Positions 42,809 to 64,000 of a DNA stretch of 64,000 bases are shown piece after piece; positions within the stretch are counted from its first letter, which is position 1, and every line of letters starts with the position of its first letter. The stretch covers positions 566-64,565 of the IMG/VR virus record IMGVR_UViG_3300010348_000547; one strand, 5' to 3'. The translations under genes and the position numbers were made by a program. This stretch comes from a virus (taxonomy: Duplodnaviria > Heunggongvirae > Uroviricota > Caudoviricetes). The notes beneath the pieces are model-generated. The model had not been told where the DNA came from, ran no database searches, and saw only the letters and a program-made list of their open reading frames with translations.

Positions 42809-45800
42809 ATGGCAGACGAAACAAACCCAAACAGCAGCGGCTTAGTATCAGCACCAATCATCCCAGCGCTTCCCGAGATACAAGCTGCTGGTGATGCTAC
42901 TGCATTGCTTAAAACTCCTCCTCCGGTTATTACTCCGGTTATCCCAAGTGGATTTCCTCAAGCCGTTGAGGTTAATACTCAATTACAAGGAGACTATCAT
43001 ACTGGCCCAGCTCCAGGAGCTAAACCTGTAAATCAGAAGAATGGTACGCTTGACTTCGTGAAAGCTTCCGTACAAGCTTTAGGAAATGACGAAGCTGTAA
43101 AAGACCAATTCAAATATGGTCGTGCTTACAGTTACGGTGCCGGATATAAAAATCAAAACTTTGAACGTTACTACAAGCATGGTAAGTTTGATGAGTTAGG
43201 CTTTTCTCCATACAGAGATAATGATGCTCTTTATAATGAGAAAGGTTCTTGGTGGGATGACTTTAACCGTATGCGTGGTGAATGGGACAATCTTGCTTTC
43301 AGTGGATTCAAATCTATTTGGGGTAGTGAAGAAACAGCCAATGAAGAAATGGAAAAGGGAATGGCTATCGGTTCTTCTACTCGTGGTGGATTTGGTAGTA
43401 GTGTTATTAACTTCGGTTTAAACTCAGCATATACAGTAGGTATCATTGGAGAACTTGCATTAGAAGATGCCGCTCTTGCCGCTCTAGAATTCGGAACAAT
43501 GGGTGCAGCTACACCAGAAGTAGCAGCTGTAGGAGGTGCTCGTAATGCTATGGCATTCGGACGCCTTGTTAAAGCTTGGGAAGGAACTTCCGCGTTCCTT
43601 AAAACTTTAAAGAATGCTGAACAAGCTAAGGATGTATTTAATGCAGCTAAAGCAGGTGAGAAACTTACTGATTTTGCTAAATGGGCTAATCCATTTCAAA
43701 GAAGTATGGAGTGGACTACACACTTAGCTAAAGGTACTAACGGTGTAAGTAATCTAGGGAATATGGCAAAGGTTTCAAAGACCTTTGGTAATTTCTACCG
43801 TGACTTACGCGAATTAAATGTGGCACATTCAGAAGCTCGTCTTGAAGGAGAAGGAGCTGCTGTAGAGTACCAAAACAAATTAGTGGATGAATTCTACAAT
43901 GAACACGGACGCATGCCTGATAACAATGAGGCTAAAGAAATTTATGACCGTGCTCAATCAGTAAAGTCAAGTGTTACACTTGCAAACGATATAACAATTT
44001 ACGCTACAAACAAACTTGTATTTGAAGACTTGTTTGAAGGAGTTCGTCCTGGTTCTAAGATTGCTGAAAGCTTCTTAGAGGGTTCAGGTAGATTCTTAAA
44101 GCGTACTGCAGCTAAAGACTTTAAAGCAGGTATGACTGCTGGAGTTGAAGGTGCAACAGCGGCTCTTACCGCTTCTGAAAAATCAGCCGGTAAGAAAGTT
44201 GCAGACTTCTTATTAACTTCTGCATACGTTCCATGGAGTCGTAAATATTTTGTTGGTAACCTAGGTGAGGCTCTTCAGGAGAATGCACAGGAAACGATAA
44301 AGATTGCCGCTCATGATTACTATGATAAGGTACACTCTGATCCATCTCAGTTAGGTTTCTACGGTACCTTGGCTTCAATTGGTAAAGGAACTTCTGCTCA
44401 GTTTTCTGGACAAGGTTTGGAAACATTCCTTTCTGGTTACATGATGGGTTCTTTAATCCAAGCTGGTGGAAAAGGTATGAAATCTATTGCAAGTCCTGCA
44501 GGTAGAGGTGCTTCAGCTTTAGCTAACATGGCTACTAAAGGAAAGTATGGTCAAGAGTGGGGTGCAGAATCTGAATCAGCTAAGGCTAAAAAGCAAGCTG
44601 AGGAAACAGATAATGACATCTTAAATGCAGCCAACTTTGTATTAGATAATGGTTTAATTTACGGTGGTCACCGTGCGGATGTTGCTGCTGGAATTAAAGC
44701 TGCAGCTGAAGCTAAACGTGCTAAAGCAAAAGAAGGGGACGAGAAGACTGCCCGCGATATGCAAAATGAAATGCAGTTAAATCACTTTGACATTTTAGCT
44801 AGAACCGGTAACATGGGTCTGATAACTGAACATGTTGATGACATGATGAAGCTTTCTGATGAAGACCTTCTTAATGCATATAACCAGCCAACAAAATCGG
44901 ATGGTTCAAATATGACAGCTGAAGATGTTCGTAATAAGCTACAAGGTCTGAAGAACAATGCTCAAGGTTACCAAAGAGCTTATGATAAAGCCCACAGGTC
45001 ACGTCCTAATCCACATAACCCGTGGATGTTTGACAAAGAGAAACACCCAGAAGCTTACAAAGATGAATTAGATAAATACATGGCCCACGAACAAGCCTTG
45101 TCTGATATGATATTTGCTAACGAAAGTTACTCAAATATTGCAGACCGTATGGCTAAGATGGGTAATGAGTTATCCGGTAACGGAGCTTTATCTAATTTCT
45201 TCAATACATCTTCTGCAGGTTCTCCTCTGGCAGATGTTATTGGTACCGATATAAGTTTATTGGTTGACCCTGTTCTTCTAAGTAAACATATGCAAAGCTT
45301 GGGTGACCAAATAAAAGTGTTCTCAAAAGGAACAGCTGAGGAAAGAAAGAAAGCTAAAGAAGCAATCGATTCAATGCGTCACTTAAAAGAGTGGAGAGTA
45401 TTCGCTCATACCTATGCAGCTGAATTAAAAAACTTAGGAAAGCCAGGAGCTACACCGGAAGAGATTGCCGCTACTCAAAAGAATGCAGATTTCTTAGTAG
45501 CACAGATGTATAAAACCTTTGATAAGTACGTACGTCATGTGGCTAAGACTAAGAATGGATTTGTGTTCACAGAACAAATGAATAAAGGCTTTAGTCTGTT
45601 AAAAGACTTCATGGCTTTAAATGCGGATAAACAAAGAATGGTTCACGCTATTAATAAATTTAGCGACCCTAACATGTTTGACCGTTACAAGGAAATTCAA
45701 AAAGACATACAGAAGTCTCAGCGTGAGCAGAAGCTTGAACGCCTTAATAAGGCTTTAGAAAAGTTCAAGGCTATGGCTTTACAGAACCAAATGTTGAATG

Positions 45801-48013
45801 AAATATTTGACTTAGGTTTATTTGTATTACCAGAAGAAGTAGAACGTCTGAAGAACTTCAGTGTAACCGATTTTTACAATGTTGCAGATAAAAGTTTATT
45901 ATCAACGTCTGACCCTAAATACAGGCAGGCTGTTGATATCATTGATAAATACGCACAGGAAGCTGGACAGATGGTTAAGGATAAAGCTACTCCAGAAGCG
46001 GGTAGTGATGAAGAGTCTCGCTCTATGGAGAACTATAACGCAACGGCAAGACCCAAGTTCAGACCAACTGCTGGCGGTGTTGGGAAAGATGACAGGAGAA
46101 CTTATAGAGACCTTGCCAAGCAGTTCGGATTTGATCCATCAAGTGTTAGGTCAACCGTAGCTGTAGAGAAAGTTTTAAAGTCTATTGTGGACAGTGAGTT
46201 TGCTACTAACCGAGAAAAAGCTTTAGCAAGACGATTGCTTGCAGTAGTAAAACCTGGTCAGGTAATTACTTTTGCAGCTGACTATTCAGGCCCTGGTGTT
46301 TATAAGTCAGATACTAAAGAAACAATAGTTGATGCTCGTTACTCTTCAGAAGATTATCAGAAGGGACAAAACGGTCATCCGGTTGAACATGTTATCTTGC
46401 ACGAGTTACTTCATGCATTAACTGTAGAAGGGCTTGAGACTGACCCAGAGTTCAAAGAAGCTATTACTAAGATGTTATCCACAGCGATGGCGTATCAGCT
46501 TTCTCCTGAAGGAAAAGCTAAGTTTGGTGATAAGCCTTTATATGGATTAAAGAATGAGGCGGAGTTTATTTCAGAGGCATTGACAAACGATACTTTCCAA
46601 AGAATGCTTAGTCGTATTCCATACACAAGTACCGGTAAGCCAAGTAACTTATGGAATGAGTTCCTAAAATCAGTGGCTAAATATATCCAAAGAATTTTTG
46701 GTGTGCAAAAAGGTTCATCATTATTGGATGAGGCTATGCACATTATTACCGCTAAGATTGACAATCGCCCAACAGCTAAAGCTCAAGAAAAAGTTCAAGG
46801 TGTTTTAAAGGCTGGAGATAAGGTTTCTCAATCTACTCCAATTGGTCAAATAAAAACTCTTGCTTTAACTTCTAAGCCGCACGCTGAATTAATTGCTAAA
46901 CTAGCTGACGGATACCGTAAGTGGACTAAGGATAAAGAGGCTGTTAAGGATTTAAGTGATGACGAAATCACAAACAGGGAGGACTTCCAAGACTTCATGT
47001 TAAAATCCGGCAGTACTCTTCACCCTATCAATGAGTTTAACGCTCAGATGGAAAAAGAGAACAAAGGTATTCCAGGAGGAAAAGCAACCACAACAACCAC
47101 TAAAGGAAAACGTGAGGTAATCAGCAATGACGAATGGCAAGATTTCGTAAACACGGGTACCGTATCAGACTTAACTTTAAAGTTAATTGTGGATAAATAT
47201 CGTGCTGCTGGTTCAAAAGCACTTAGCGAACGTGAACAAGCAATCTTCCAAGCAAAAACGCCTGAGATAGAAAGTTTACTAAAGAAGATTCAGGACGAAG
47301 AAATCGCAGCCAAGGAAAAAGCTAAGATTGATGCCAACAAAGCTAAAGCTAAACCAGTTGAAGAAGTAAAAGAGGGTCAGGAAGTTATTACTCCAAAAGC
47401 TCTTATGGAACAATATACAGAAATCACTAATGCTGAAGAGATAAAAGCATGGGAAAATAATGCTGCAGCTTTCTTACAGATGGGTGACCTAGATGCTTTC
47501 GAGAAAGAATTCGGAGAGCCCTTTACTCCAGAATTTGCTATGCGCCAATTAACAGATAAAGTAAAAGCTCTTGCTGAGAATTTAGATTTCAACACTCTGC
47601 AGATGGGTACCGTAGTTATACTTTCAGATAAAAAATCTGTGGCTGTTGTGTCGAAGAATGATGGTAAAACTGTATCTTTAATGCCATACAAAATGTTTAA
47701 GGAAAACTTTAAACTTAGTCCTGAAGGGGAATGGGTTAAAAGGTCTGAAAGCATTAATGAAGAGGGAGTTATCCCAGTGCCGAAAGAGGAAGTTAAAAAT
47801 TACATATGGATTAAAAACAGTGAATTTAAAGAAATGGTAGAACAAACACCTGAACCGACTCCAGAGGAAAAACAAGAATCAGCAGAAACTCTTGTAGCTG
47901 AAAAAGAAAGATCAGCTGACGAAACCAATGAGATTCTGAACAACGCTGAAACCGTTGATAACGCTGAAGCTAAAAATGCTGCGGCTAGTTTATTTAGTAC
48001 TTGTAAAAGATAA
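42809..48013 (+). CDS. Giant virion cargo protein with zincin-like metalloprotease domain
   Basis: 1734 aa. HELLH at 46400-46414 with downstream NEAEFISEA, and a Gly/Ala hydrophobic segment near the N-terminus. Confidence 0.75.
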   Translation: MADETNPNSSGLVSAPIIPALPEIQAAGDATALLKTPPPVITPVIPSGFPQAVEVNTQLQGDYHTGPAPGAKPVNQKNGTLDFVKASVQALGNDEAVKDQFKYGRAYSYGAGYKNQNFERYYKHGKFDELGFSPYRDNDALYNEKGSWWDDFNRMRGEWDNLAFSGFKSIWGSEETANEEMEKGMAIGSSTRGGFGSSVINFGLNSAYTVGIIGELALEDAALAALEFGTMGAATPEVAAVGGARNAMAFGRLVKAWEGTSAFLKTLKNAEQAKDVFNAAKAGEKLTDFAKWANPFQRSMEWTTHLAKGTNGVSNLGNMAKVSKTFGNFYRDLRELNVAHSEARLEGEGAAVEYQNKLVDEFYNEHGRMPDNNEAKEIYDRAQSVKSSVTLANDITIYATNKLVFEDLFEGVRPGSKIAESFLEGSGRFLKRTAAKDFKAGMTAGVEGATAALTASEKSAGKKVADFLLTSAYVPWSRKYFVGNLGEALQENAQETIKIAAHDYYDKVHSDPSQLGFYGTLASIGKGTSAQFSGQGLETFLSGYMMGSLIQAGGKGMKSIASPAGRGASALANMATKGKYGQEWGAESESAKAKKQAEETDNDILNAANFVLDNGLIYGGHRADVAAGIKAAAEAKRAKAKEGDEKTARDMQNEMQLNHFDILARTGNMGLITEHVDDMMKLSDEDLLNAYNQPTKSDGSNMTAEDVRNKLQGLKNNAQGYQRAYDKAHRSRPNPHNPWMFDKEKHPEAYKDELDKYMAHEQALSDMIFANESYSNIADRMAKMGNELSGNGALSNFFNTSSAGSPLADVIGTDISLLVDPVLLSKHMQSLGDQIKVFSKGTAEERKKAKEAIDSMRHLKEWRVFAHTYAAELKNLGKPGATPEEIAATQKNADFLVAQMYKTFDKYVRHVAKTKNGFVFTEQMNKGFSLLKDFMALNADKQRMVHAINKFSDPNMFDRYKEIQKDIQKSQREQKLERLNKALEKFKAMALQNQMLNEIFDLGLFVLPEEVERLKNFSVTDFYNVADKSLLSTSDPKYRQAVDIIDKYAQEAGQMVKDKATPEAGSDEESRSMENYNATARPKFRPTAGGVGKDDRRTYRDLAKQFGFDPSSVRSTVAVEKVLKSIVDSEFATNREKALARRLLAVVKPGQVITFAADYSGPGVYKSDTKETIVDARYSSEDYQKGQNGHPVEHVILHELLHALTVEGLETDPEFKEAITKMLSTAMAYQLSPEGKAKFGDKPLYGLKNEAEFISEALTNDTFQRMLSRIPYTSTGKPSNLWNEFLKSVAKYIQRIFGVQKGSSLLDEAMHIITAKIDNRPTAKAQEKVQGVLKAGDKVSQSTPIGQIKTLALTSKPHAELIAKLADGYRKWTKDKEAVKDLSDDEITNREDFQDFMLKSGSTLHPINEFNAQMEKENKGIPGGKATTTTTKGKREVISNDEWQDFVNTGTVSDLTLKLIVDKYRAAGSKALSEREQAIFQAKTPEIESLLKKIQDEEIAAKEKAKIDANKAKAKPVEEVKEGQEVITPKALMEQYTEITNAEEIKAWENNAAAFLQMGDLDAFEKEFGEPFTPEFAMRQLTDKVKALAENLDFNTLQMGTVVILSDKKSVAVVSKNDGKTVSLMPYKMFKENFKLSPEGEWVKRSESINEEGVIPVPKEEVKNYIWIKNSEFKEMVEQTPEPTPEEKQESAETLVAEKERSADETNEILNNAETVDNAEAKNAAASLFSTCKR

Positions 48014-48021
48014 TTAATACC

Positions 48022-51000
48022 ATGAGCTGTTTATTAAACCAGGAAATGCGAGATGGGCTATTCGTAATGGTAGCCTCTGATTTATTTACAAAAGCAAAAG
48101 GCGACGAGCCTCTTGACCTTGATGCGTATATCAGGGAGGTGTATAACTTTGCTAAAATTTCTTCTCAAGGGAATGAAGCTTTAGCATTAGATGCCGCAAT
48201 GCTGGTACCTGGTTTTGTTGACCAGACATTAGCTAATAGACCAAAGTTAGAAGAGCACTTTGAAAAATTCAATGAAGACATCCGTATGGAAGTTCTTGCA
48301 AAGAAAAAAGCTTTCCGTAGTATCGATAAAGTAAGAGAAGTTCTTGGTTTAACTGAATCACCAGCTGAGATTATTGATGCGGTGGAACAGGATATTAAAA
48401 CCGAGGTTGCTCCTGAACCCGTAATTGAGTCTGAAGAAAAACAGCAAGAAAAAGCTGAACCATGGAAAACGTTACCATTTGGTGCATTCTATACCTATGG
48501 ACCAGAGATAACTGAAACAGGAGAGGTTGTAAAAGAGAATGTACTAAACATTGCAGCTATTAAAACCATTAGAGAACTGATGGAAAAGCAAGGTGTCTCT
48601 GATAGCTCACAAGTAAATGTACCTGGTGTAGGTCCTGTATTTTTAAAGATTATGCCAGCAGGTGAAGCTAATAAACTTGCAGGTCGTCCAAGTTATACCC
48701 ATGCTGATAAAGGTATGGTAGCTGTTCTTACCAGCTCATGGGGTGAACCTGTATCATTTGATGGTACCGGTAAAGCTATTACAAATGGTAAAGGTGCTTC
48801 ATGGTTTAAACTATACAGCCCTGTTCCTTTCAAAGTAAATGCAGGAGGAACTATGATTCTTGATTTGAATCAGAAAGCTTTCATGGATCATGTGATGGCC
48901 AGTCCTGAGTATAGTACAATGAAAGACTGGCAAAAGAAAAAGAATGCAGCTTCTTTCTATAACACAGTTATGACCAAATACAATGCTTTAGTACGTCAGT
49001 ACAGAGATGCGGGTATGACTGAAGTTGAAGCTGAAATGGAGGCACTTGATAATTTAACAAGAGACTTTGAAGCATTCGAATGGATGCGTCAATATGTAGA
49101 AGAAAAAGGTAATTCAGTTCAAGCTGTTATTACAGGTTCTTCAAAAGGGTTTGTTATCAACAATCAATATAACCCGACTCCGCTTAAACAAATCTTTGGT
49201 GAGAATACGTTTTCTCCAATCTCTGTTAAGAAAGAAGAGTTAGGTATGAACTTACCAATGGGTGGTGCATATTTCTATGCTCCTGGAATTAGTGAGCCTA
49301 TCAACATTGATAAACCTTCTGTGAAAGATATGCCTGAACTTATGAATCAGCTTATCTCTTTATTCACTCAACCATTAACAGAGAATGGTAAGCCTGTTGA
49401 TATTCTAAGGAGGAATGCACTTATTCAACAGTTCTTATTAGCTAAGTATAGCAATATCCGTTTTGTACCAAACACTAAAGACGGAGGCTTTACACATGAG
49501 AATGGTCAATTCCGTGTGGATATTAATGGTGTACGTTACAGCTTTGACTATACTGAAAGCGGAACAGCTAACAGAAATAAATTAGCTGAGGCTTTACAAA
49601 AAGCATTTACCACTCCAAGCAAAGGTGCTAAGGTTCCTCTTAAACGAGAGAACTTAGCTAAGGAAGGTGTAGTACCCGTTAAAACATTAGAGGGTCAAGT
49701 TAACACCAATAATGTTTTAGAAGACGACAAAGGAGACTTTTACAAAATCAATTTCCCACACGTAGACGTGGTAGGAAACTTGATCAATGGTGTATTGGAA
49801 ATGCCAACTATCAACAACGGTGTGTTGACAATTACTCCAATGCCTTATAATAATTTCATAAGAGATAACTATGCAACTATCGCAAAGGTTGATGCTAACA
49901 ATAAAGTTGTAGCATTTAATCCTGTAATGACTTTTGCTCCTACGCTAGAGGAGTTTACTAAGTTCATACCTGGTGCAAAAGTTCAAGAGCAAGTTGAAAA
50001 ATCACAAGAACCTGTAGAGAAAAAAGAACCAACCAATACAGCGGCTACACAATCTAATGCTGATTTGGATGAATTGGCTGCAGGCTTTACGATGGATAAA
50101 AGACTTCCTCAAAAAGAATTGAACTCTGCTGTTTTAGCACATCAAATAAAACAAGCTGAGATTTGGTACAACAATAGTCCATTGAAGAAGCACTTTCCTT
50201 TTGAAACTGTGTTCAGAGCAGTGAACCAAGGTATTGGTCCAGTTGCTCAATGGTCAATTCATGGTATCCGTTTATTCCATTATTACTCTGAGGATGGTAA
50301 GTTTGATGCATCAAAAAGTGGTGACTTCACTGATTTATATCATGAAGCATGGCACGGTTTTACACAAACTTTCCTTACGGCTGACCAACGTAAAACATTA
50401 TATGCTGAAGCACGCAATCGTTCTGGCTCATTTGTAGACTACAATGGAAATACTGTCTCTTTTAAAAGTGCTGATGTATGGCAACTTGAAGAGTTCTTAG
50501 CAGAAGAATTTAGAGAGTTCATGATATCCGGTGGTAAAAAGATGATAAAAGGTTCTCCAGGAACACGTTCTATATTTAAACAAATACTTGATTTCTTAAA
50601 AGCCCTATTTACAATACACCAAGTACCTGCAGCAGATTTAATTCAAAACCCGCTGAGTTATGGACCTATATTTGAGATGTATGAAAACCTACGTGTTGGT
50701 GATTTGTCTAAGTATAACTTTGACGTTAACAACCGTGACAAATCAATAGGTGTATTAAACAGCTTACAAGCTCGTGATAAAAACAGCAGTAGCCAGGTAA
50801 TTGACTTGCAGAATGCCAACATGTTGGTGAACTCAATGGACTCTATCATCTCTAAGTTTGCAACGTTTGTTTCAAAATCAAAAGGTGACAGGTCTTATGT
50901 AACTCAATTAATGAGTACACCTGAGAATAGAAAGTCTGTTTACAGAACCGTTCTTCAAGAACTTATCAAAACTAAAGACAAACTCATTAAAGAACGTGAT

Positions 51001-54000: not shown

Positions 54001-57000
54001 GTTTACTTACAATTCTTAAAGAACCAGTTGGAGATAGCTCCTCACTTTAAGGAGAAAGTAACATTCCCTACTCAGATGCGTAAGCTTATTGAAAACGGTC
54101 TGATGGAAGGCGGAGTTCCTACTGATTTCAGAAGTGACTTACCATTACCAGAAAGACAAGCTGAGTGGGAGAAACTTACTAAAGACGAGAAGTTTGAAAA
54201 GTCTCCATACTACAACTTGATCAAGCGTTATGAAGCAAACATTGCCAAGCTAACCAAAATCAAGAAAGAGGCTCTTATCAAAGAAGCTAATATCCAGTAC
54301 AAAACCGTTGATGGAAAACGTGTAGTACAGATAGACAAAAAGCTGATTGAGTTCATCCAAGGTGAGCTTTCTCGTCAAGAATTAGGCGAGCATGAAATTG
54401 CGTTTCTTAAAACTAAGAAAGGTGGTACCGGATTAGCGCATGACCTTTCAATCTCTCTTTCTTCTGAAAAGCTTGAGAAGATTTTAAATGCTATCGTAGT
54501 AAAGCGCCTTGTAAAACAAAAGTTTAAAGGTGAAGGTTTAATCCAGGTATCTGGTGCAGGTTGGGAAACTAACTTACGCGGGGAGCTTTCTGAAGAAGAA
54601 AGAATCAAGTATGGTACAAATGAATTACCATTCTATACTCGTGGAGAAGATGGAAAGACTAAAGCTATGAAAGTTAAAATTGCAATGCAAGGAGACTTCC
54701 GTAAGCTTTATGAATTACTACACAATGATGGTCAAAAGATTGATTCACTTGAGCGCTTAAATGAAATGCTTAAGAGTGAAGAGTGGCTTAATAAAGGACA
54801 GCATAGAGACATGGTGAGTATCACTGGTCCTCGTATCCCAACCCAGGAGAATAACTCTATGGAGTTTGCTGAGGTTTATGAGTTCTTACCTGAACAAGCG
54901 GGTAACATCGTTGTTCTTCCTTCTGAGATAGTTGCTAAGTCGGGTGGTGACTTTGACATCGATAAGATTACATTCATGTTCCCTACCATTAAAGCTAAGA
55001 CTAACCTTAAGGATATTGACTTCAAGATGTTTGGAGACTTCCATAACAAGACGGAAGATGAGCTTAAAGCAATCCTTGAGAAAAAGAAAAAGGACAGAAC
55101 CGAGGAAGAGCAAAACATCTTTGACCATATCTACAACTACTATCCTAAAGAAGTAACCCTTCCTATGGATACTACAACTGAAGAAGGTCTTGAGAATCGT
55201 ATCTTGAAAAACATGAGAGATATGCTAGCTCTTAAAGACAACTATGCCAGTTTAGTACGTCCAAATGATACTGACTTAATTAAACCTTTGGCTGATGATC
55301 TGGCTGATAAAGTAATGGCGTATAAACCGAAAGCACGTTTCCGTGGAGAGTCTTCGAAAGTAATTGCAGGTACGCGTGTATTTGAAATTCAATACAACTT
55401 ATACAAGCATGGGTCAAACAATATTGGTAAACAAACCTTAGGTTTAGGTGCCGTGGATAACACATACAATACGGTATTCAACCGTATCGGTATGCGTATG
55501 AACAAAGGTTATACTACAACAGGTGGTGTCTACAAAGACTTAAATATATTGTTGCCTCACAACCGTGTTAACGATGAGTCAGGTAACAAAGTTATCTCAT
55601 TAGCTAACTTGTATGATGCAACTGGACAAACAAGCATTTCTTCAGTAGTTGCACAGCTTATTAATGGTTGGGTGGATATTGCTAAGGATGCTTGGATATT
55701 CAACATCCAAGGTAACAAAGAGGTATCACCAACGTTGTTATTTATGGTACAGGCGGGTGTTCCAGTAGACCAAGCAGTTTACATGGTATCACATCCACTA
55801 ATCCGTAAATACGTTGAGGAACAAAAGTTAGCAAAGAGTATGTTTGCTAAGACTCTGGGTAAAGGTGATAAGAATCCAATGTTCTTCAGAAACGCTGCAC
55901 GTCGTGTGATGTTTGAAGAATTGTTTGATAAAGACACAACTAAAAAGCTTGGAGGAAAAGCCAAAGAAAGAGATGAGAAGTTTGACCAGTTGACTCGTGA
56001 TTACTATCAATCACCTGAAGTTAAAGCATTCTTCAATCCAAAAGAAGTTGCCAATAACTTGTATGGCCGAATTGAAAACAAATCCGGAATGTGGGACAAT
56101 GTAGATAGAGCAATCTTCTTACACTTCCTTGAACTGGAAGAGATGTCAAAGGTTATGACCAAAGTTAAAATGAACACTAACTTTGATACTAGCCGTTCTG
56201 CAACGTTGTTTGATGCACAAAGAAAGTCTCAGTTGTTAGCTGACTTAAGAGAAGAACGTATGTTCCCTTCAGCAATGATTGATGCTATCTTAACTGAATC
56301 ACCTATCGGTAGTTTCAATGTTCAAGATTTCCAAGTTGAATTATGGCAAGACCTATTCAAGTTGAGAAACAATCCTGTGTTGAATACATTCATCATGGAT
56401 AAAATGAAAGACCTTAACGAGTTCAATGATGCTAAGGACGCTACATTCGGTGATGCTGAAAAAATGGTTAATGAATTACGCAATGACTTAACTAGCTTTA
56501 TTTTCCAAAACTCAATACGCAAGTTCAATATCAACGATAAGGTTTACCGTGGTATGGACATCAAGTCTGAGGGTAAAGAAGTGAAGTCTTTAACTAGTTT
56601 ACGTCATGCTGTATTTGTTAAGGATGGTGTCATCTATATGGACAAGGCTCAACTAGAAAAAGACTATCAAGCTTTAGCTCTTAAGAAATACAAATACAAT
56701 GTTACATTAGCAGATGGTACCGTTATATCTGTAGCTCCTGTTAAAGCTACTGATTTTGAAACAGCTGATACTTACTACTCGTTTGTGTTTGAACGTGAAA
56801 TATTACGTGACCAATGGAAAGGTAAGTGGGACGTTATGAAAGAAAGAGCTGATGTACAAGCTAAACTTGAAATGTACAATGCAAGCTTAGCAAAAGAAGC
56901 TGATGAAACTGATGCTCATTTTGAAGCTCGTGTAAATCAAATAGTATTTGAAGAAATGCTACGTGATATGGCTATGGACAATACATTCAATGCGGCTAAG

Positions 57001-58335
57001 ATGTTTAGAAGCAGAGAATCAATGGCCGATCAACTTACGCAGATACAAATCATGTATCCAGAACTTGCAGATAAGTACAGCTTAGTAGGTGCTTTATCAG
57101 CTAACGTAATGGAAAGAGGTAGCAGCCGTACAGCAAACATAATGCTGAATGACTCTATGATTGATGACCCTGAAAAGATAAACATATTCCACCAGAACTT
57201 GTTGGCCTTATCTGACCCACATAAGATTGAGCTTAATACAGAATCCGCTGTTGAAAGACAACGTGTAACAGATTTCTTCAATCGCTTTACTATATATGCT
57301 TTCTTACAATCTGGTATGAACACTAAAGGGATGTATTCATTAATACGCTTGGTGCCTCAGGAGAAGTTCACTGACCTAATGACTTTATACATTCCGGAAT
57401 TCTCTAGTAAGATTAATAATGTCACGCTTGAACGTTATTGGAAAAAGTTCATCCAGGTAAATTCTGACCGTAGATCTCGTAGCCGTATGAGAGATTATAC
57501 TATTAACAACTATGACCTGAATGCAGACTACGAACGTAGCGGTTACGGGCAAGCTTCAGTTAAAGATGTTAAAGACATGATTAAGGCGGCATTAAAAGAA
57601 AAGGCTACTACGACAGCTGCACCTGAAGTTAAGTTTACTGAAGATGCACAAGGTAATATGATATTCGATGCTCACGGTATCGGTCGTGTTGGAGCTACTA
57701 TCGCTTCCAATAAAAATCCGGATGTGATATTTGCCATCAATGGTGTTGCTCAGTCTCCTGATGGTAAAATGCTAGATGGTGGTGCAGATAAAAACGAAGC
57801 TGCTCTTTATGGTATCAAGCAAGGAAACGTTGTAGGATTACCTACAAGAAATACATTCCGTGCAGGTAAAGATGGTCAGATGAATAAAGCTGATATTTTA
57901 CCAGATGGTCAACAACCGGTTGAAGGAGCAAACGGAATTGCCTCTACAGGAAAGACTCAAACTGGAAACCAGCCGGCACCTATCAATTCTACAGTAATCA
58001 ATCCTGCTTTAAAACAGCAAATTGACTCTGCTATATCTACGCTTAAAGACTATCAAGCCCAAGGTAAAAAGATTGCTTTTCCTAAAGCAGGTTTCGGTCA
58101 ATACATGATTGGAGCAGATGATGTTACGGGTGAACTAAAAGATGATAAAATTGTGCCAATAGCTCCCGCAGCTTTCGTATATTTGTCTCAACAGCTTTGG
58201 GATAATTTTAAGTTTGTGAACCCTAATTTTGACAAGGCGCTTGGTTTTACTAAGCAAGCCAATGTACTGCAAGCTAATGCAGAGGTTACAGACTTAGATG
58301 TGTTAGACGCCCTTAGTTTTTGTTTTAAAGCGTAA
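48022..58335 (+). CDS. crAss-type virion-packaged single-chain DNA-directed RNA polymerase with an N-terminal zincin domain
   Basis: 3437 aa. The catalytic GGDFDIDK (DFDID at 54949-54963) is preceded by ITGPRIPTQ, matching the DFDID motif of Cellulophaga phage phi14:2 gp66. HEAWH at 50341-50355 with EEFLAEEF. Confidence 0.9.
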   Translation: MSCLLNQEMRDGLFVMVASDLFTKAKGDEPLDLDAYIREVYNFAKISSQGNEALALDAAMLVPGFVDQTLANRPKLEEHFEKFNEDIRMEVLAKKKAFRSIDKVREVLGLTESPAEIIDAVEQDIKTEVAPEPVIESEEKQQEKAEPWKTLPFGAFYTYGPEITETGEVVKENVLNIAAIKTIRELMEKQGVSDSSQVNVPGVGPVFLKIMPAGEANKLAGRPSYTHADKGMVAVLTSSWGEPVSFDGTGKAITNGKGASWFKLYSPVPFKVNAGGTMILDLNQKAFMDHVMASPEYSTMKDWQKKKNAASFYNTVMTKYNALVRQYRDAGMTEVEAEMEALDNLTRDFEAFEWMRQYVEEKGNSVQAVITGSSKGFVINNQYNPTPLKQIFGENTFSPISVKKEELGMNLPMGGAYFYAPGISEPINIDKPSVKDMPELMNQLISLFTQPLTENGKPVDILRRNALIQQFLLAKYSNIRFVPNTKDGGFTHENGQFRVDINGVRYSFDYTESGTANRNKLAEALQKAFTTPSKGAKVPLKRENLAKEGVVPVKTLEGQVNTNNVLEDDKGDFYKINFPHVDVVGNLINGVLEMPTINNGVLTITPMPYNNFIRDNYATIAKVDANNKVVAFNPVMTFAPTLEEFTKFIPGAKVQEQVEKSQEPVEKKEPTNTAATQSNADLDELAAGFTMDKRLPQKELNSAVLAHQIKQAEIWYNNSPLKKHFPFETVFRAVNQGIGPVAQWSIHGIRLFHYYSEDGKFDASKSGDFTDLYHEAWHGFTQTFLTADQRKTLYAEARNRSGSFVDYNGNTVSFKSADVWQLEEFLAEEFREFMISGGKKMIKGSPGTRSIFKQILDFLKALFTIHQVPAADLIQNPLSYGPIFEMYENLRVGDLSKYNFDVNNRDKSIGVLNSLQARDKNSSSQVIDLQNANMLVNSMDSIISKFATFVSKSKGDRSYVTQLMSTPENRKSVYRTVLQELIKTKDKLIKERDELSGEDPKTAYKRNILQQSINTLEWATGPNFGDIENLANNKDNKGLIAYHVLKSKYLSEQDKESLFDDSEIDEVKQNEEARGQGFDRSGNETSQYDLSSPEVKYLLRSIHRFDKNGLPVKNVIGIHELADTHVVWNKIARTLNGIMSRPDMWKALDKAAHERNAAGEVTRIIDPTISELLDKLGPVDTQSEADTALWQKFWATFNMVSIPLIQMTVEETTREDNGVVSSSYKMTIGQANSSSRRTGNLWRNAFRTMNTDYILRDMNEATPEGKQNPTFNMNYLDVDAVIADFTDTKGKLKDAPGFLRAIGVLLSDKPVINTAVNSNVGNPAVILTRLKTLSKNNIKRVYSLDDVFKEYEDLGLASDNANLTALADLENKHSDHTSNYAQTNAEGNTQYELSLHNSMSIMVSTINSAESYQDLMAIPHMRYLDININPFAASSLWLNSIFEMKDALGRPLATNDPAFGRKRRDASGNLVKLNMSNLSGVQMTSESGTDGIASASADEFTKMIMDFHMTLNGKPELMRHADKGTSFSLWLQNIVGGAKTGGYVDTISFFKTEQGDVIGYNKAADMMMNYLDAEMKRIQKLNEIKELTKKGDVVYDEHYLKEGRKFVIFEDILTPATQAALLKDKSLVNVVPENLEKVRAEIIEYLDNQFNNVKEVFQKNHFIDKTLSARIKTEAAKAGYVTGPVANSFANKALTLTEDAMVRSFVVNSWIHNIESMNIVYGDIAQYNMKKEEFHKRNAGAGSTGNLFAVDNAMVNYVNKQGRKYAASKGFTEKQLATDGSFQTAILKDNEIPSAYFKEIRQAIAERITAKNKGLSAKELEEKIDKAVKAYTEMNEGDAQGWITFDFYRSASIMEGKWTGKQEKMYQAICAGESISMDDAMEFFPTKKYQYWGPVENRKNENGQFVKDQSGFLPTMAFHKFSLFPLIPNVIKGTNLEKLHDKLMKQGIDYAVFKSGSKISTLTKIDEEGNKIQDVLYSKGREVDETSTLTPNTVYLQFLKNQLEIAPHFKEKVTFPTQMRKLIENGLMEGGVPTDFRSDLPLPERQAEWEKLTKDEKFEKSPYYNLIKRYEANIAKLTKIKKEALIKEANIQYKTVDGKRVVQIDKKLIEFIQGELSRQELGEHEIAFLKTKKGGTGLAHDLSISLSSEKLEKILNAIVVKRLVKQKFKGEGLIQVSGAGWETNLRGELSEEERIKYGTNELPFYTRGEDGKTKAMKVKIAMQGDFRKLYELLHNDGQKIDSLERLNEMLKSEEWLNKGQHRDMVSITGPRIPTQENNSMEFAEVYEFLPEQAGNIVVLPSEIVAKSGGDFDIDKITFMFPTIKAKTNLKDIDFKMFGDFHNKTEDELKAILEKKKKDRTEEEQNIFDHIYNYYPKEVTLPMDTTTEEGLENRILKNMRDMLALKDNYASLVRPNDTDLIKPLADDLADKVMAYKPKARFRGESSKVIAGTRVFEIQYNLYKHGSNNIGKQTLGLGAVDNTYNTVFNRIGMRMNKGYTTTGGVYKDLNILLPHNRVNDESGNKVISLANLYDATGQTSISSVVAQLINGWVDIAKDAWIFNIQGNKEVSPTLLFMVQAGVPVDQAVYMVSHPLIRKYVEEQKLAKSMFAKTLGKGDKNPMFFRNAARRVMFEELFDKDTTKKLGGKAKERDEKFDQLTRDYYQSPEVKAFFNPKEVANNLYGRIENKSGMWDNVDRAIFLHFLELEEMSKVMTKVKMNTNFDTSRSATLFDAQRKSQLLADLREERMFPSAMIDAILTESPIGSFNVQDFQVELWQDLFKLRNNPVLNTFIMDKMKDLNEFNDAKDATFGDAEKMVNELRNDLTSFIFQNSIRKFNINDKVYRGMDIKSEGKEVKSLTSLRHAVFVKDGVIYMDKAQLEKDYQALALKKYKYNVTLADGTVISVAPVKATDFETADTYYSFVFEREILRDQWKGKWDVMKERADVQAKLEMYNASLAKEADETDAHFEARVNQIVFEEMLRDMAMDNTFNAAKMFRSRESMADQLTQIQIMYPELADKYSLVGALSANVMERGSSRTANIMLNDSMIDDPEKINIFHQNLLALSDPHKIELNTESAVERQRVTDFFNRFTIYAFLQSGMNTKGMYSLIRLVPQEKFTDLMTLYIPEFSSKINNVTLERYWKKFIQVNSDRRSRSRMRDYTINNYDLNADYERSGYGQASVKDVKDMIKAALKEKATTTAAPEVKFTEDAQGNMIFDAHGIGRVGATIASNKNPDVIFAINGVAQSPDGKMLDGGADKNEAALYGIKQGNVVGLPTRNTFRAGKDGQMNKADILPDGQQPVEGANGIASTGKTQTGNQPAPINSTVINPALKQQIDSAISTLKDYQAQGKKIAFPKAGFGQYMIGADDVTGELKDDKIVPIAPAAFVYLSQQLWDNFKFVNPNFDKALGFTKQANVLQANAEVTDLDVLDALSFCFKA

Positions 58336-58346
58336 TTAGTATAAAG

Positions 58347-61300
58347 ATGAAAATATGTCCAAATCTTAGCGACCCTCAAATCAAAGCTCAATGGGATGCC
58401 TTAGAACAGCATCCCGAGTTAGGTAAACTTGAGGCAATGAGAGAATTTATGGAGGCGGAAATCGATGGTCGCCCTGTACTTACTCCTGAACTTGTTATAG
58501 AAAAGCTATCTAAAAGGTCAACACCTAAGTCAGCTGAAGCAATTCAAGCTGAGATGGATAGACAGGAAAAGATTATCCTGAGCAAATCAAATGACACAAC
58601 CTTGTTCACTGACCCTAACTCCCTGTACGGGAATGCGGCTTTGACTAGCGATGTTAACTTGATTGAGTTGGACGTTACCTCAAATAGTAACACTCGTGGT
58701 ATAGAACTAGCTACCAAACTTTCTGAGCAATTAGGAGTTGGGTTTCAGGTTGTTTCTCCTGAAGAAGCAGCCCGTATTACTGCAGAGTCGGAGAACCCCT
58801 ACAATGCAACTAAAGGTTCTGCATTCTTCTATGGGGATACTGTTTACTTTGTAGGTAGTAAGCTTAATACACAATTAGCATTCCATGAGTTTTCTCATCC
58901 GCTTATTCGTAGTATTCAACAGCAAAACCCTCCATTATTTCAAAAACTAGTTAACAAGGCTATTGCCTCCGCTCCAAAAATTTTGGAAGAGGTACAAGCT
59001 GAGTATGCGGATTTACTTAAAGCATTTGAGCAGGAGTCTGACCCAAGACGTGCAGCTGAACTAGCTGCTAAGTATCAAAATATTGTGGGTGAAGAGATAT
59101 TAGTACGCTCTTTAACGGTAGCCGCTGTGATCAAATCAAACAACGTACAACTGATGGGTCCATTCCAGAAGTTCATTGATGAGCTCCTGTATGCGATTAA
59201 GCAAATCTTAAGAGGGACATTCGGTAAAAAGGTTGACGTAGCCAAATTAGATGGTAACACAACTTTGGATGAACTAGCTGAGATGCTTGTAAAAGGTAAC
59301 CAGTTTGAGATTGATACTAATGCTGTTTCTGATAAGGATGTTGTCGCTTACAGTGATGACTTCAGTGCATACCTGGATGACTTAAATGCCGCAACAGAAA
59401 CGGCCGGTGCACAACATTTAACTGACCTATCTCGTAAGATGTACGAAGGAGCTGCTCAACAAATTGAAATGTTGATGAAGAACCGTAACTACCGTGAGAT
59501 GCTTGAGTTATTTGTGGATGACTATAACCGTGGTGACTTACAGGAGATGCGTTCTAATGTAGCTAAATACGCTAAACAACTTCAGGCTAAAATGGAAGAG
59601 CTTGCTGAAGATGTAGACCGTACTCGTAATGAAGGAACTGCTTTAGTTACCAGTATTCTTCGTCTGGAAGTGATGATGAAGAAGATGGAAGCTCATCTTA
59701 ATAAACTACAGGCTGAGGCTCAAAAGACTCCTACTACTCAGGAGGAAGAAGAGAATCACCGAGATATGGTTCACAAAGCATATTACTATTCCCATGTATT
59801 AAACTACTGGCAAAAATATATTGCTGAGGCAAAAGACATGATGCAAAAAGCCGGTGCAGATCCTCGTTCTCCTATGACTACATTACTGAACAGTATTCAA
59901 GGAACAATGGAGAACTCCGCTCGTCACATAAATGCTATGAATACCACAGGTATCACTGATGTATTATGGGACCAATGGAAAGACATGTCTGAGCAAGCAG
60001 AAAAATTATTCAATGAGCAAATAGCTACACTGAAGAAACAAGGCGCTAACAAGTCAATCATTGATAAAGCTTTCATTGATTTCCACGGTATGCCTGAGGA
60101 AGGTGTTACTCGCTTGAGAGAATTAAATGCTAAGCTGGACAGTGGTCAAAGACTGAATGGTGCTGAAATGGGTGAGCATGAAAATCTTAAAAAGCTTTCC
60201 TTAAACGGATTCAACGTTACTAAGACTAAGATTGAAGCGGCCTTACGCGGGGAGGGTAAAGATGCTAACTGGGCTAACTCTTACCTGGAAGGATACCTTT
60301 ACAATACTGACCCTGTAATTGGAGGCTTTGCGAAGTACTTCAAGAATAACATGATTGAAATGGAGTCTCGTGTTCAGGCACGTTACAACGATATCGTTTC
60401 TGAATTAAAACCTTTACTAGATTCTGCAGGTATTACCTTTACAAATATTGGTGACCTTGGTAAGAAGATTGGTTTTGTAGACACCATTGGTTACTTTGAC
60501 CCGGAACAAAAGAAGTTTGTTACCAAAGAGGTATGGACATTATTGAATGCCAACAAGAACTACCGTGCTACAATTGACCAATTCAACTATGATATAAAAA
60601 CTCTTCAAGATAACTACAACCGTAGCGGGATGGAAGAGGATAAAGATGCATTACGTAAAAAGATTGCAGAAAAGAACAAGCACATGAAGCAATGGTTCCA
60701 CCAAAAATATGTGGACGAATACTATGAAGCTTCAGAATTACTTGAGGGTGAACTTGGCGAACAGGCTGCCTTTGAACGTCAGAAGATTCTGGATGAAATC
60801 GGATTGCTTCAATCTAAAGCAATGGATGAGTTTGATGTATTAAAAAACACTGAGCAGTTAGGTTTACTGTGGAAAAAGTATAAGTTCTTGCATTCATCGT
60901 ATTATGCCGATGGAACAAAAAAGACTAACTCTTATGTGGATGATGCAGGTGTAGTACACACATCAAACAGCTTCATCGAGAAAGCTCCTGGACGTAATAA
61001 CATCAATAATGACTTAGCCATTGCAGAACGCTTGACTGAGTACAAAGAGAAAATGAAAAAGTTCTACGAGTTTAAACCTCGTGAGGGAGCTTTTGAGAAT
61101 GCCTTACTTAACTTTGAAAAAGAGATTGAGGCGAAGATCACCCAGTTGCTTGGTTCTAAACCTACTGACCCAACTGAGGCGTCTGAATGGGAAGACCAAT
61201 ACGAAGCAATGTTTGAAACGTACCGTAAGGAATGGATTAACTTGAATACTCGTGTTCAAATTAAACCAGAATTCTACGAACGTCGTGCTGAAATATTGGC

Positions 61301-64000
61301 CCGTATAAAAGAGATTCTAGCAAAGCTTCCTTCAACACAGGCTAATGAACTTGACTTCAGTAACAGCTGGGTTGAAATCTTGGATGTTGTTTCCGGATAC
61401 CGTGATGATGATGGTCAACCTGTAGGAAATGAAATACCTGGTGCTCGTTTACAAATTGTAAAGGATGCTCAGCAAAAGATGGAAGATGCTAAAGCTAAAT
61501 GGGCGGGCTTCTCCGGATTAACTACAGCTGAGATGGACCGTCTGATTGCGTACTCCGTTACCAAAAAAGGTGGAACAAAATTAACCAGCGCAGAATGGAG
61601 TGACTATACTGCATTACTAGATAAACAAAACGACGTAGGTTTGAGTAAGTTTGACCGTGCTTCTCTTAACAGAGCCTTTGCTGAGTTAAACGAACTACAA
61701 AGAAAAGAACCTACTGAGTATTATGTTGACGCCATTAATCAATTCCTGAATGAGATTAATGACCCTGAAGTTTATAAATTGTTGGCTACAACCGAACTGG
61801 ATGTGAACACTGTCGGTAAGATTTATGACGAAAAGGTGCTTTCTCTCCTGAATCAAAATGCTCAGTTTAAAGAATGGTTTGACCAGAACCACACCGTGAA
61901 AATGATCTTTGATAAAGAGACTGGTGTAAAGGTTCCTAAATACGAACGCTTATACGTGTGGAATGTCATTAAACCTAATGACGAGAACATGTATGAGACT
62001 ACTGAAATCAAACGTGAGGATGGTACATCTGAATTCATTCCAGGTGTTCCTACAACTAAATACTTCAGCCGTGTAGTAAAGAAAGAATACTATACCGGTT
62101 ATGACCCTTCAATTGAAAATGCGGACGGTACCTTTGGTGCTGTAAGACCTATTGTAGGTGTTCACCGTGACAACAGTGGTAGTGACAATGGATGGTTACC
62201 AAAACAAATCCAAGGCTCACCTTACTATAATGAAGAGTACTTCAAGTTAAAAAATGCTCCAGAGGGTTCTCAGGAGAACAAGCTTTTCAAAATCCTTGAA
62301 CTGGTTACAAAGCATCAGCTTAAAACGCAGGAGGGTCTTGGAAAACGTGGTAAGTTGTATCTTGACTTCCCGCGTTTCGAGATGGAAGGTCTAGAAAAGC
62401 TACAGGCGAAGGGTATCAAAGGCGCCAAAGAAAAGGTAAGTACAATTCGAACTCTCCTGGCCAGCATACGAGATTTCTTTAAAGGAGCTAAAGCTGACTC
62501 AGGTACCAACTTTAACTGGGAACAAGAGAGTCAACTGGTGCGTGCAGATGCGTTCGACGATCAGATTGAGAACATCCCAATCCAGGGACTATTCAACTTG
62601 GACTTGAACCGTACTTCTACTGATATTATTCACAGTATGTTCCGTTACCTATACGGTGCAGAACAACATAAACAGCTGGTGAAAATGAATCCGGTTGCAA
62701 GTGGTATCAAGAATATTCTTGAAGACCCTAAGCAGCAGTTAAAAGAGATGGACAAAATCAACAGGTCCAACTTTGTGAACTTTGGTATTACAACTTACCT
62801 GAACAAGAAAGGAAAGTATGTACGTAGAAATGCATTCTCTAACCTTTACAACAGAGAGTTTCGTGGAGAAACTACCACAGGTTTTGGTAAAGATTCAAAG
62901 ATGATTCAGAACATTCAACGCGGGTTGTTTGGTCGTGCTTCATTCTCCTTCTTTGCTTTCAACATCCCTTCTGCTATGAAGAATGCATTAGGCGCTAAGT
63001 TCCAGGCAATGATTCACGCTGCCGGTGGAGATGACGTAACAATGACGAGTCTAGCTAAAGGTGAAGCTTGGTCATCTAAATACATGATGAAACTCAGCTT
63101 TGGTGACGCCTATACGAAAGGTCAAAAGAGTTTCGAACACCAACTGGGAGAAATATTTGACCCAATCCAGGGACGATTTCATGAGAAGTTCGGTACATCC
63201 GTATCTCGTACAATGGCTAAAGATATTGTCAGCACAGGTTGGTTTACTAACTTCCGTAAGTGGGTAGAGATTCAAGCGGGTATGCAAACCTTTGCAGGTA
63301 TGATGTACAAGCAACAGGTGGAAATGAACGGCAAGATGGTTGACTATATGGATGTGTGGGAGATTGGCAAGAACGGTAAGATTCAATTGAAAGCTGGAGT
63401 TGACCCTACTTGGGGTATCACTTACGATGAAGAAGGTAACATGAAAGTGGGTGAAGAGTTTAAAAAATTCAAGACTCGTATCCATGCTGTAATGAATAAA
63501 CTGAATGGTGCCTATGCTAAATTTGATCAGCCAGAAGCACAACGTTATTTGGCTTTCCGATTTGTATCTTTCTTACGTAGATTCTTTACCACAATGGCAA
63601 TGAACCGTTTTGGTCAGAAACGTTGGAATCCTGGATACGGGGAGATTGATGAGGGTTACTATGTATCTGCAGCTAAATCTTTCCTTACTTTACTCCGCAC
63701 CCGCAATGTCAACAACATGACTAAAGCTGATAAAAAAGCTTGGATGAAATTAGTTACGGAAGTTGGTTCTATCTATATGATGGGATTACTTCTTGGCTTA
63801 TTATGGGGATGGGATGATGACGATGAAGAACGTTTTGCTAAACTTAGAGAGCGCTCTTCATTCTTACAGATTCCAGGAACTCGTGATTATCAACCAGGAG
63901 AACACTTTGATGCAGGTGGATTCCTTTCATTACATGCGATGAACATGATGATGCAAGTACGTGCTGAGAACGAACAGTTCTTACCTGGTCCAGGTATCAA
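58347..64000 (+). CDS. 3'-truncated giant virion cargo or ejection protein (>1880 aa) with zincin motif and hydrophobic helix (not in the ORF track)
   Basis: ATG 58347 (MKICPNLSDP). The frame was open at every point I checked, including the last line, and no stop-terminated + strand ORF is listed here. HEFSH at 58884-58898 with GEEILVRSL; VGSIYMMGLLLGLLWGW at 63762-63812. Confidence 0.85.
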   Translation, partial: MKICPNLSDPQIKAQWDALEQHPELGKLEAMREFMEAEIDGRPVLTPELVIEKLSKRSTPKSAEAIQAEMDRQEKIILSKSNDTTLFTDPNSLYGNAALTSDVNLIELDVTSNSNTRGIELATKLSEQLGVGFQVVSPEEAARITAESENPYNATKGSAFFYGDTVYFVGSKLNTQLAFHEFSHPLIRSIQQQNPPLFQKLVNKAIASAPKILEEVQAEYADLLKAFEQESDPRRAAELAAKYQNIVGEEILVRSLTVAAVIKSNNVQLMGPFQKFIDELLYAIKQILRGTFGKKVDVAKLDGNTTLDELAEMLVKGNQFEIDTNAVSDKDVVAYSDDFSAYLDDLNAATETAGAQHLTDLSRKMYEGAAQQIEMLMKNRNYREMLELFVDDYNRGDLQEMRSNVAKYAKQLQAKMEELAEDVDRTRNEGTALVTSILRLEVMMKKMEAHLNKLQAEAQKTPTTQEEEENHRDMVHKAYYYSHVLNYWQKYIAEAKDMMQKAGADPRSPMTTLLNSIQGTMENSARHINAMNTTGITDVLWDQWKDMSEQAEKLFNEQIATLKKQGANKSIIDKAFIDFHGMPEEGVTRLRELNAKLDSGQRLNGAEMGEHENLKKLSLNGFNVTKTKIEAALRGEGKDANWANSYLEGYLYNTDPVIGGFAKYFKNNMIEMESRVQARYNDIVSELKPLLDSAGITFTNIGDLGKKIGFVDTIGYFDPEQKKFVTKEVWTLLNANKNYRATIDQFNYDIKTLQDNYNRSGMEEDKDALRKKIAEKNKHMKQWFHQKYVDEYYEASELLEGELGEQAAFERQKILDEIGLLQSKAMDEFDVLKNTEQLGLLWKKYKFLHSSYYADGTKKTNSYVDDAGVVHTSNSFIEKAPGRNNINNDLAIAERLTEYKEKMKKFYEFKPREGAFENALLNFEKEIEAKITQLLGSKPTDPTEASEWEDQYEAMFETYRKEWINLNTRVQIKPEFYERRAEILARIKEILAKLPSTQANELDFSNSWVEILDVVSGYRDDDGQPVGNEIPGARLQIVKDAQQKMEDAKAKWAGFSGLTTAEMDRLIAYSVTKKGGTKLTSAEWSDYTALLDKQNDVGLSKFDRASLNRAFAELNELQRKEPTEYYVDAINQFLNEINDPEVYKLLATTELDVNTVGKIYDEKVLSLLNQNAQFKEWFDQNHTVKMIFDKETGVKVPKYERLYVWNVIKPNDENMYETTEIKREDGTSEFIPGVPTTKYFSRVVKKEYYTGYDPSIENADGTFGAVRPIVGVHRDNSGSDNGWLPKQIQGSPYYNEEYFKLKNAPEGSQENKLFKILELVTKHQLKTQEGLGKRGKLYLDFPRFEMEGLEKLQAKGIKGAKEKVSTIRTLLASIRDFFKGAKADSGTNFNWEQESQLVRADAFDDQIENIPIQGLFNLDLNRTSTDIIHSMFRYLYGAEQHKQLVKMNPVASGIKNILEDPKQQLKEMDKINRSNFVNFGITTYLNKKGKYVRRNAFSNLYNREFRGETTTGFGKDSKMIQNIQRGLFGRASFSFFAFNIPSAMKNALGAKFQAMIHAAGGDDVTMTSLAKGEAWSSKYMMKLSFGDAYTKGQKSFEHQLGEIFDPIQGRFHEKFGTSVSRTMAKDIVSTGWFTNFRKWVEIQAGMQTFAGMMYKQQVEMNGKMVDYMDVWEIGKNGKIQLKAGVDPTWGITYDEEGNMKVGEEFKKFKTRIHAVMNKLNGAYAKFDQPEAQRYLAFRFVSFLRRFFTTMAMNRFGQKRWNPGYGEIDEGYYVSAAKSFLTLLRTRNVNNMTKADKKAWMKLVTEVGSIYMMGLLLGLLWGWDDDDEERFAKLRERSSFLQIPGTRDYQPGEHFDAGGFLSLHAMNMMMQVRAENEQFLPGPGI

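Follow-up and report, generated by a model that had tools for sequence, protein, structure and literature searches.

Putative metallopeptidase domains in the three giant cargo proteins of an uncultured crAss-like phage and their unequal conservation

Introduction

Few known viruses are as abundant as the crAss-like phages. The described system with which the present locus is chiefly compared is that of Cellulophaga phage phi14:2 (PDB 6VR4; Drobysheva et al., bioRxiv 10.1101/2020.03.07.982082), in which three giant virion genes follow one another in the order gp67, gp66, gp65 along the direction of transcription, the central one encoding a two-barrel RNA polymerase and the downstream one, gp65, carrying a zincin-like domain near its N-terminus. 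In the gp66 polymerase, self-inhibition is brought about by a cleft-blocking domain, which 'refolds or is cleaved' (bioRxiv 10.1101/2020.03.07.982082), and the structure of gp66 raised the question of how an injected polymerase that is silent in assembly is switched on after ejection. Here, we examine a comparable locus in a 64,000-nucleotide (nt) stretch of DNA (the window), comprising bases 566-64565 of the 128,565-bp viral record IMGVR_UViG_3300010348_000547, which is rated complete and derives from an uncultured lake crAss-like phage. Three consecutive giant genes of this window encode P0001, P0002 (the predicted RNA polymerase) and P0003, each with a single zincin-type HExxH motif. The sites in P0002 and P0003 are invariant among the homologues analysed, whereas that in P0001 is often inactivated, a difference that shows which of the domains deserve priority.

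Pairings of this kind are also known from other phages. A zincin-like peptidase is the commonest hub domain of polyvalent proteins, and virion polymerases of the N4 type are always fused to one (PMC5512222). In the N4-like virion RNA polymerases (vRNAPs; PMC5512222; C1 domain, PMC13434306), a giant injected polymerase is joined to an HExxH domain that is linked by profiles to anthrax lethal factor; however, the N4 polymerase is T7-like and its metallopeptidase (MPTase) domain is C-terminal, whereas the polymerase considered here is of the two-barrel type and its putative MPTase is N-terminal. Because both the polymerase types and the MPTase positions differ, the two pairings appear to be convergent. 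The MPTase-containing polyvalent systems (PMC5512222) further resemble this locus in that several MPTases per system are possible, other conflict domains are fused in relatives, and the same functional hypotheses have been raised. Thermus phage P23-45 gp96 (PMC10770324) is likewise a giant virion protein in which an injected two-barrel RNA polymerase is combined with a metallopeptidase, but the carrier there is the tape-measure protein of a long-tailed phage and its peptidase is described as typical of tape-measure proteins; no homology was found between this peptidase and the domains described here. Self-processing, polymerase activation and attack on the host have already been published as possible roles, both for crAss gp65 (bioRxiv 10.1101/2020.03.07.982082) and for the MPTases of polyvalent proteins (PMC5512222), and the points made below fall within this known framework. 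In the crAss literature searched, a zincin is mentioned in one paper only, and for gp65 orthologues only. What appears to be undescribed is that the chain of a two-barrel polymerase holds an invariant site, that three distinct domain types are present, and that these are unequally conserved.

One zincin-type motif in each giant cargo protein

The three genes lie on the + strand, as do all features given below unless stated otherwise, at 42809-48013 (P0001, 1734 amino acids (aa)), 48022-58335 (P0002, 3437 aa) and 58347-64000 (P0003, continuing beyond the window end). In the full genome, P0003 has a length of 1973 aa, its last 89 codons and the stop (270 nt) lying past the window. The three genes are best explained as a crAss-like virion cargo module, consisting of an upstream protein in the gp47/gp67 position, an injected two-barrel RNA polymerase and a downstream gp65/gp49-like protein, although packaging of a crAss-type polymerase in the virion is established by mass spectrometry only for phi14:2 and crAss001.

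An earlier note, made from the sequence alone, had claimed one zincin-type motif per giant gene, and both the open reading frames (ORFs) and the motif positions agree exactly with that claim: HELLH at aa 1198 of P0001 (nt 46400-46414) with EFISE at aa 1252, HEAWH at aa 774 of P0002 (nt 50341-50355) with EEFLAE at aa 823, and HEFSH at aa 180 of P0003 (nt 58884-58898) with EEIL at aa 249. HExxH occurs exactly once in each of the three proteins and is absent from the 31 other + strand ORFs of the window (13,675 aa). Long proteins may acquire such a motif by chance, and composition-preserving shuffles gave at least one HExxH with a frequency of 0.036 for P0001, 0.039 for P0002 and 0.029 for P0003, that is, 3-4% for each protein taken singly. 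The joint chance for all three giant proteins, however, is about 4e-5, and the motifs are invariant or clade-conserved and lie inside conserved domains with a conserved downstream Glu; these conservation data already rule out a chance origin, a reading to which we give almost no weight. The domains of P0001, P0002 and P0003 are hereafter referred to as types A, B and C, respectively.

The RNA polymerase and its type B domain

P0002 is homologous to phi14:2 gp66 (PDB 6vr4_A; expectation value (E) 3.5e-18, phmmer), with its DFDID catalytic motif (aa 2310-2314, nt 54949-54963) aligned to that of gp66 (P0002 GGDFDIDKITFMFP against gp66 GSDFDIDKMYVMLP). A profile built from 29 full-length P0002 homologues matched gp66 with an E of 1.9e-49 in six collinear segments and crAss001 gp50 with an E of 4.4e-37, and the gene is flanked by two giant cargo genes where the Crassvirales structural module ends. 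The proposal that the middle protein is a 3437-aa crAss-like virion RNA polymerase with a DFDID motif is thus upheld by the homology to gp66 and the aligned motif, and the sequence comparisons support P0002 as a putative gp66-type enzyme with a large extension. The 'roughly 1200 extra residues' attributed to it earlier correspond to a length excess of 1257 aa over gp66 (2180 aa). According to profile mapping, gp66 residue 1 corresponds to about aa 860 of P0002 and the gp66 end to about aa 3225, leaving approximately 860 extra residues at the N-terminus and 210 at the C-terminus, while the remaining ~190 are attributed to internal insertions.

The N-terminal extension (aa 1 to ~860, nt 48022-50601), which is missing from gp66, precedes the body collinear with gp66 (aa ~860-3225, nt 50599-57696) and bears at its end the type B zincin-like domain (aa 714-879, nt 50161-50658), comprising HEAWH and the helix LEEFLAEEFR; gp66, in contrast, has neither the extension nor any HExxH. 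The end of the type B domain coincides with the start of gp66 homology. Residues 195-387 of gp66, including the cleft-blocking domain (196-233), map to about aa 1055-1249 of P0002, a segment match that is weak for gp66 itself and clear for crAss001 gp50 and cr116_1 gp051, so that the type B domain lies approximately 190-230 residues ahead of the counterpart of the cleft-blocking domain.

A search with the type B region over residues 600-1050 retrieved 236 giant proteins, of which 120 among the matches listed, at 30-60% identity, were analysed. HExxH is kept in all 120 of these homologues, within a near-fixed D-L-Y-H-E-A-W-H-G-F-T context, and the invariant alignment columns include D, Y, H, E, H, E824, A827, E828, F830 and R831; E824 and E828 of LEEFLAEEFR, two residues that lie in nt 50488-50505, are invariant in homologues. 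With a type B core profile, representatives of 1742 clusters (50% identity) were matched at E<=1e-3, and those of 266 clusters at E<=1e-30, most of the matches listed being proteins of 3000-5000 aa. A very large uncultured branch, with at least 266 such clusters giving strong matches and 1742 in all, carries a strictly conserved peptidase-type site in the polymerase chain.

P0002 has the hallmarks of a polyvalent protein, namely a giant multidomain protein of the virion locus joining unrelated enzymatic domains, here an RNA polymerase and a zincin-like domain. Its homologues contain further domains confirmed by hmmscan, including an AAA_30/AAA_19 helicase near the C-terminus, NADAR just ahead of the zincin, an N-terminal Kinase-PolyVal domain that directly precedes the zincin, and DUF7831. 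Precomputed annotations of homologues add AlkB, an AAA_33 kinase and a histidine phosphatase, and chain lengths in the family reach 4984 aa (homologues including P0008, P0028, P0033, P0055 and P0064). For the C-terminal tail of P0002 itself (aa 3160-3437, nt 57499-58335), a weak language-model lead points to DUF7831 (score 0.80), which Pfam places in a comparable position in several homologues.

The downstream protein and its type C domain

The type C zincin-like domain of P0003 spans aa 104-292 (nt 58656-59222) and combines HEFSH with E249 and E250 (nt 59091-59096), the former nearly invariant and the latter invariant. Conservation was assessed in 52 viral loci that had been fetched around the polymerase and reached the downstream gene, and HE[FY]xHP is kept in the downstream protein of every one (52/52). 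An alignment of 30 type C proteins shows invariant H, E, H and P, together with a Glu 66 residues later, which corresponds to E250. In nine loci (L027, L029, L037, L038, L043, L058, L059, L069 and L079), 370-990 residues of the downstream ORF precede the zincin, compared with about 180 here; since the type C offset differs among these loci, the N-terminal region ahead of it must be variable in length.

The upstream protein and its unevenly kept type A domain

The N-terminal body of P0001, of about 1060 aa, is conserved among 67 related loci, and its profile gives a weak match to crAss001 gp47, in the N-terminal part of the latter (E 3.6e-4). This body is followed by the type A zincin-like domain (aa 1126-1330, nt 46184-46798) with the HELLH motif. 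Its third ligand is probably the Glu of FISEA, at about aa 1256, judging from the conservation of the Glu of F-I/V-x-E-A in the P0001 family. The best matches of type A are cr116_1 gp051 (65 bits), phi14:2 gp65 aa 235-362 (45 bits) and cr4_1 gp27.

Retention of this domain was surveyed in 60 distinct orthologues of the P0001 body, a sample chosen through the polymerase and called unbiased here. Only 21 contain a type A domain, with HExxH intact in 3 and degenerate in 18, while the domain and any HExxH are both missing from the other 39; the closest relative in this set (L006, 53% identical) wholly lacks the type A region. Around the present phage, 45 of 48 word-matched homologues keep the motif, down to 36% identity, a count from a word-seeded search that is biased toward motif-sharing sequences. 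Where HExxH is lost, the F-V-A-E-A-x-T-N helix is mostly retained, and because of this retention the type A fold would be one kept without catalysis in the motif-losing orthologues.

Such degeneration bears on the possibility that the domains are non-catalytic zinc-binding or structural modules serving packaging or assembly of the ejection complex. This reading is favoured by the 18 of 21 domain-bearing orthologues in which the type A motif is degenerate but the domain is otherwise preserved, and by N4 vRNAP, whose HExxH-bearing C-terminal region is required for encapsidation and which is reportedly packaged uncleaved (PMC5512222). However, the general-base Glu is invariant in 172/172 type B and type C sequences among the matches listed, which a purely structural metal site does not require, and we consider a structural role distinctly unlikely. 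The general-base Glu of types B and C is as invariant as the metal ligands, and because it is kept so strictly, catalysis is favoured over metal binding alone. Type A could instead be an accessory copy that has been inactivated or dropped in many lineages, with the type B and type C sites catalytically competent and under strict selection.

Several close homologues of P0001 (P0131-P0142) possess a second HExxH near residues 1555-1726, absent from P0001 itself, which may be a further C-terminal zincin copy. In two viral contigs (L041:7292-18112 and L051:7748-18568), an intact type A domain (HEILH) is found at the C-terminus of the polymerase ORF, at residues 3382-3583, and the upstream protein there lacks the domain, which looks like movement of the domain between neighbouring cargo genes.

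Fold and family assignment

Structure models were made for the type B domain of P0002 and the type C domain of P0003. Both show a helix, a small sheet, an HExxH helix and a Glu helix (predicted secondary structure, of modest strength), which resembles the arrangement given for the MPTase core (PMC5512222), with HExxH falling in predicted helices 133-146 (P0002 model) and 171-189 (P0003 model). The best structural matches of both folded domains belong to peptidase family M34 (anthrax lethal factor and the Pro-Pro endopeptidases PPEP-1, -2 and -3), and the alignments cover the HExxH helix as well as the Glu helix in each case. The model of the P0003 N-terminal region has a predicted local confidence (pLDDT) of 73, with values of 85-96 in the domain. 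The domain-wise structure search called for by the earlier note thus returned zincin endopeptidases as best matches for types B and C, while the Foldseek matches of the P0003 model, although rich in zinc peptidases, were weak and below significance. As a lead from a language-model search, types B and C retrieved the same top ESM Atlas clusters (scores 0.95-0.96), which are small phage proteins associated with polyvalent-protein domains.

The resemblance to M34 is structural only, as profiles found no PDB or Pfam match to this family at the sequence level. The type B profile had no match among PDB sequences at E<=10, which also means that gp66 is without a type B domain. The three proteins, scanned whole against Pfam and PHROGs, gave nothing meaningful, and PF18838 (LPD23) had no match in the genome. 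In profile-profile comparisons, types A and C were related with an E of 1e-4 and a probability of 58%, with the motif register off by one helical turn, and the probabilities were 13% for types A and B and 5% for types B and C; from these comparisons, the three domain types may plausibly share an origin. The best explanation of the combined evidence is that each giant protein has one putative gluzincin-type metallopeptidase domain, in which HExxH would occupy one helix and the ligand Glu a subsequent one. From the sequences, we infer the identity of the metal-binding Glu in types A, B and C, as well as zinc binding and peptide hydrolysis by the domains.

These fold matches also bear on the suggestion that one or more of the domains cut the peptide stems of peptidoglycan or envelope proteins and thereby help the ejection channel through the cell wall. 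Such a role has been suggested for gp65 by Drobysheva et al. (bioRxiv 10.1101/2020.03.07.982082), and virion metallopeptidases with this role occur in tape-measure proteins such as P23-45 gp96 (PMC10770324). Nevertheless, the best matches are lethal-factor-type protein endopeptidases rather than cell-wall peptidase folds, and type B is covalently joined to a cytoplasmic enzyme, making an action on the cell wall very unlikely.

Possible functions

Among the readings that attribute proteolysis to these domains, the one we put foremost, at somewhat short of an even chance, is that they are metallopeptidase domains of injected polyvalent proteins, similar to lethal factor and the Pro-Pro endopeptidases (the MPTase of Iyer et al. 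2017, PMC5512222), most likely processing the cargo itself. Once refolded in the host, the cargo proteins would be cut in cis or in trans by these domains, and the polymerase-borne type B domain could liberate an active enzyme from the N-terminal extension or from the cleft-blocking element. That type B could release the polymerase from its extension is suggested by its position just upstream of the gp66-like body. A more specific version, which we regard as rather unlikely, treats type B as a cis-acting activation switch that, after ejection and refolding, cuts off the extension with the cleft-blocking element, so that the self-inhibited polymerase becomes an active early transcriptase. If this is true, the pairing of a polymerase with a lethal-factor-like peptidase arose independently in N4-like (T7-type) and crAss-like (two-barrel) phages, which points to a general protease-gated design for virion polymerases.

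Several observations weigh against cargo processing. The gp66 polymerase of phi14:2 is active in vitro without any protease (bioRxiv 10.1101/2020.03.07.982082) and N4 vRNAP is reported to be packaged unprocessed despite its MPTase (PMC5512222), indicating that processing is no universal requirement. The upstream site is lost or its domain missing in 57 of 60 orthologues and is hence dispensable in most lineages; as phi14:2 and crAss001 each have a single site, the earlier idea of a 'triple-protease apparatus' does not hold as a general feature of the module. Furthermore, MPTase-PolyVal (PF18818) had no match at E<=10 in a six-frame search of the whole genome, and Pfam scans of the proteins and of 40 homologous segments revealed no peptidase family.

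The domains might alternatively be injected effectors that cleave host proteins, such as defence systems or RNA polymerase factors, rather than the phage's own cargo. This is one of the MPTase roles listed for polyvalent proteins (PMC5512222), and the nearest folds, lethal factor and the PPEPs, are endopeptidases acting on other proteins. The homologous polymerases carry conflict-type domains (NADAR, Kinase-PolyVal, the helicase and the precomputed AlkB hits), and three zincin types could mean three specificities. On the other hand, invariant surroundings of the active site across very different phages, and presumably hosts, fit a conserved phage-internal substrate better, and an effector role seems unlikely to us. 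The same domain types exist in cultured phages (crAss001 gp47 and phi14:2 gp65); since these phages can be grown, the proteolytic-activation hypothesis has concrete residues to mutate.

Distribution of the domain types among described phages

The likeness to phi14:2 extends to the three giant virion genes, the central two-barrel RNA polymerase with an aligned DFDID, and the zincin-like domain near the N-terminus of the downstream protein. In phi14:2, however, HExxH is found in gp65 only (aa 245, HEIMH ... HEFISEV), gp66 and gp67 being without it, and the gp65 zincin is closest to type A of P0001 (45 bits, BLAST), whereas the gp65 body resembles P0003. The zincin reported in the literature for this module thus exists as the earlier note had stated, but it belongs to the protein downstream of the polymerase and not to the upstream one. 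P0001 is ruled out as the gp65 orthologue, since phi14:2 encodes gp65 on the downstream side of its polymerase. In its C-terminal part, P0003 resembles phi14:2 gp65, crAss001 gp49 and cr116_1 gp048, and a tblastn search of the three proteins against an annotated phage collection matched cr116_1 only, in the type A domain and in the C-terminal portion of P0003.

In human-gut crAss-like phages, the domain types recur at different places. In crAss001, neither gp50 (the polymerase) nor gp49 has an HExxH, and the one site present is a type B near the C-terminus of gp47 (YHEAFH ... LEENMAEGFRRF, profile E 1.5e-6); together with the weak match of the P0001 body to gp47, this suggests that gp47 may represent the P0001 body plus the P0002 extension with a shifted gene boundary. 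In the 4491-aa gp26 of cr4_1, type B (E 3.5e-15) precedes the polymerase core by about 780 aa, and gp27, downstream of gp26, has type A. The giant coding sequences of cr4_1 (L086, NC_055893.1; 4358-17833 and 17835-23246) contain in-frame stops under translation table 11, which fits stop-codon recoding; in each zincin, one such stop separates HExxH from the Glu helix. In cr116_1, type A is fused ahead of the split polymerase in gp051. None of the four described genomes checked has all three types intact, and the phage described here has the fullest set among the genomes examined. Because the domain types differ in position among phi14:2, crAss001, cr4_1, cr116_1, L041 and L051, the zincin domains would seem to be mobile pieces inside a conserved three-protein cargo module. 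Database records label crAss001 gp47, gp49 and gp50, cr4_1 gp26 and gp27, and cr116_1 gp051 as hypothetical or as 'RNA polymerase subunit'.

Genomic context

The + strand of the window carries a Crassvirales structural module. Upstream of the giant ORFs lie the terminase large subunit (TerL, 4296-6518) and the portal (6523-9306), and the module further includes the Crass_capsid major capsid protein (10796-12421; PF23898, E 2.7e-32) and the crAss muzzle protein (crAss_MUZ, 28696-33864; PF25731, E 5.8e-38). The + strand block ends with the three giant ORFs, followed by one + strand ORF of 227 aa and then a strand switch. Two minus-strand ORFs nested in the giant + strand genes, at 63072-63542 (156 aa) and 47377-47754 (125 aa), are most likely spurious.

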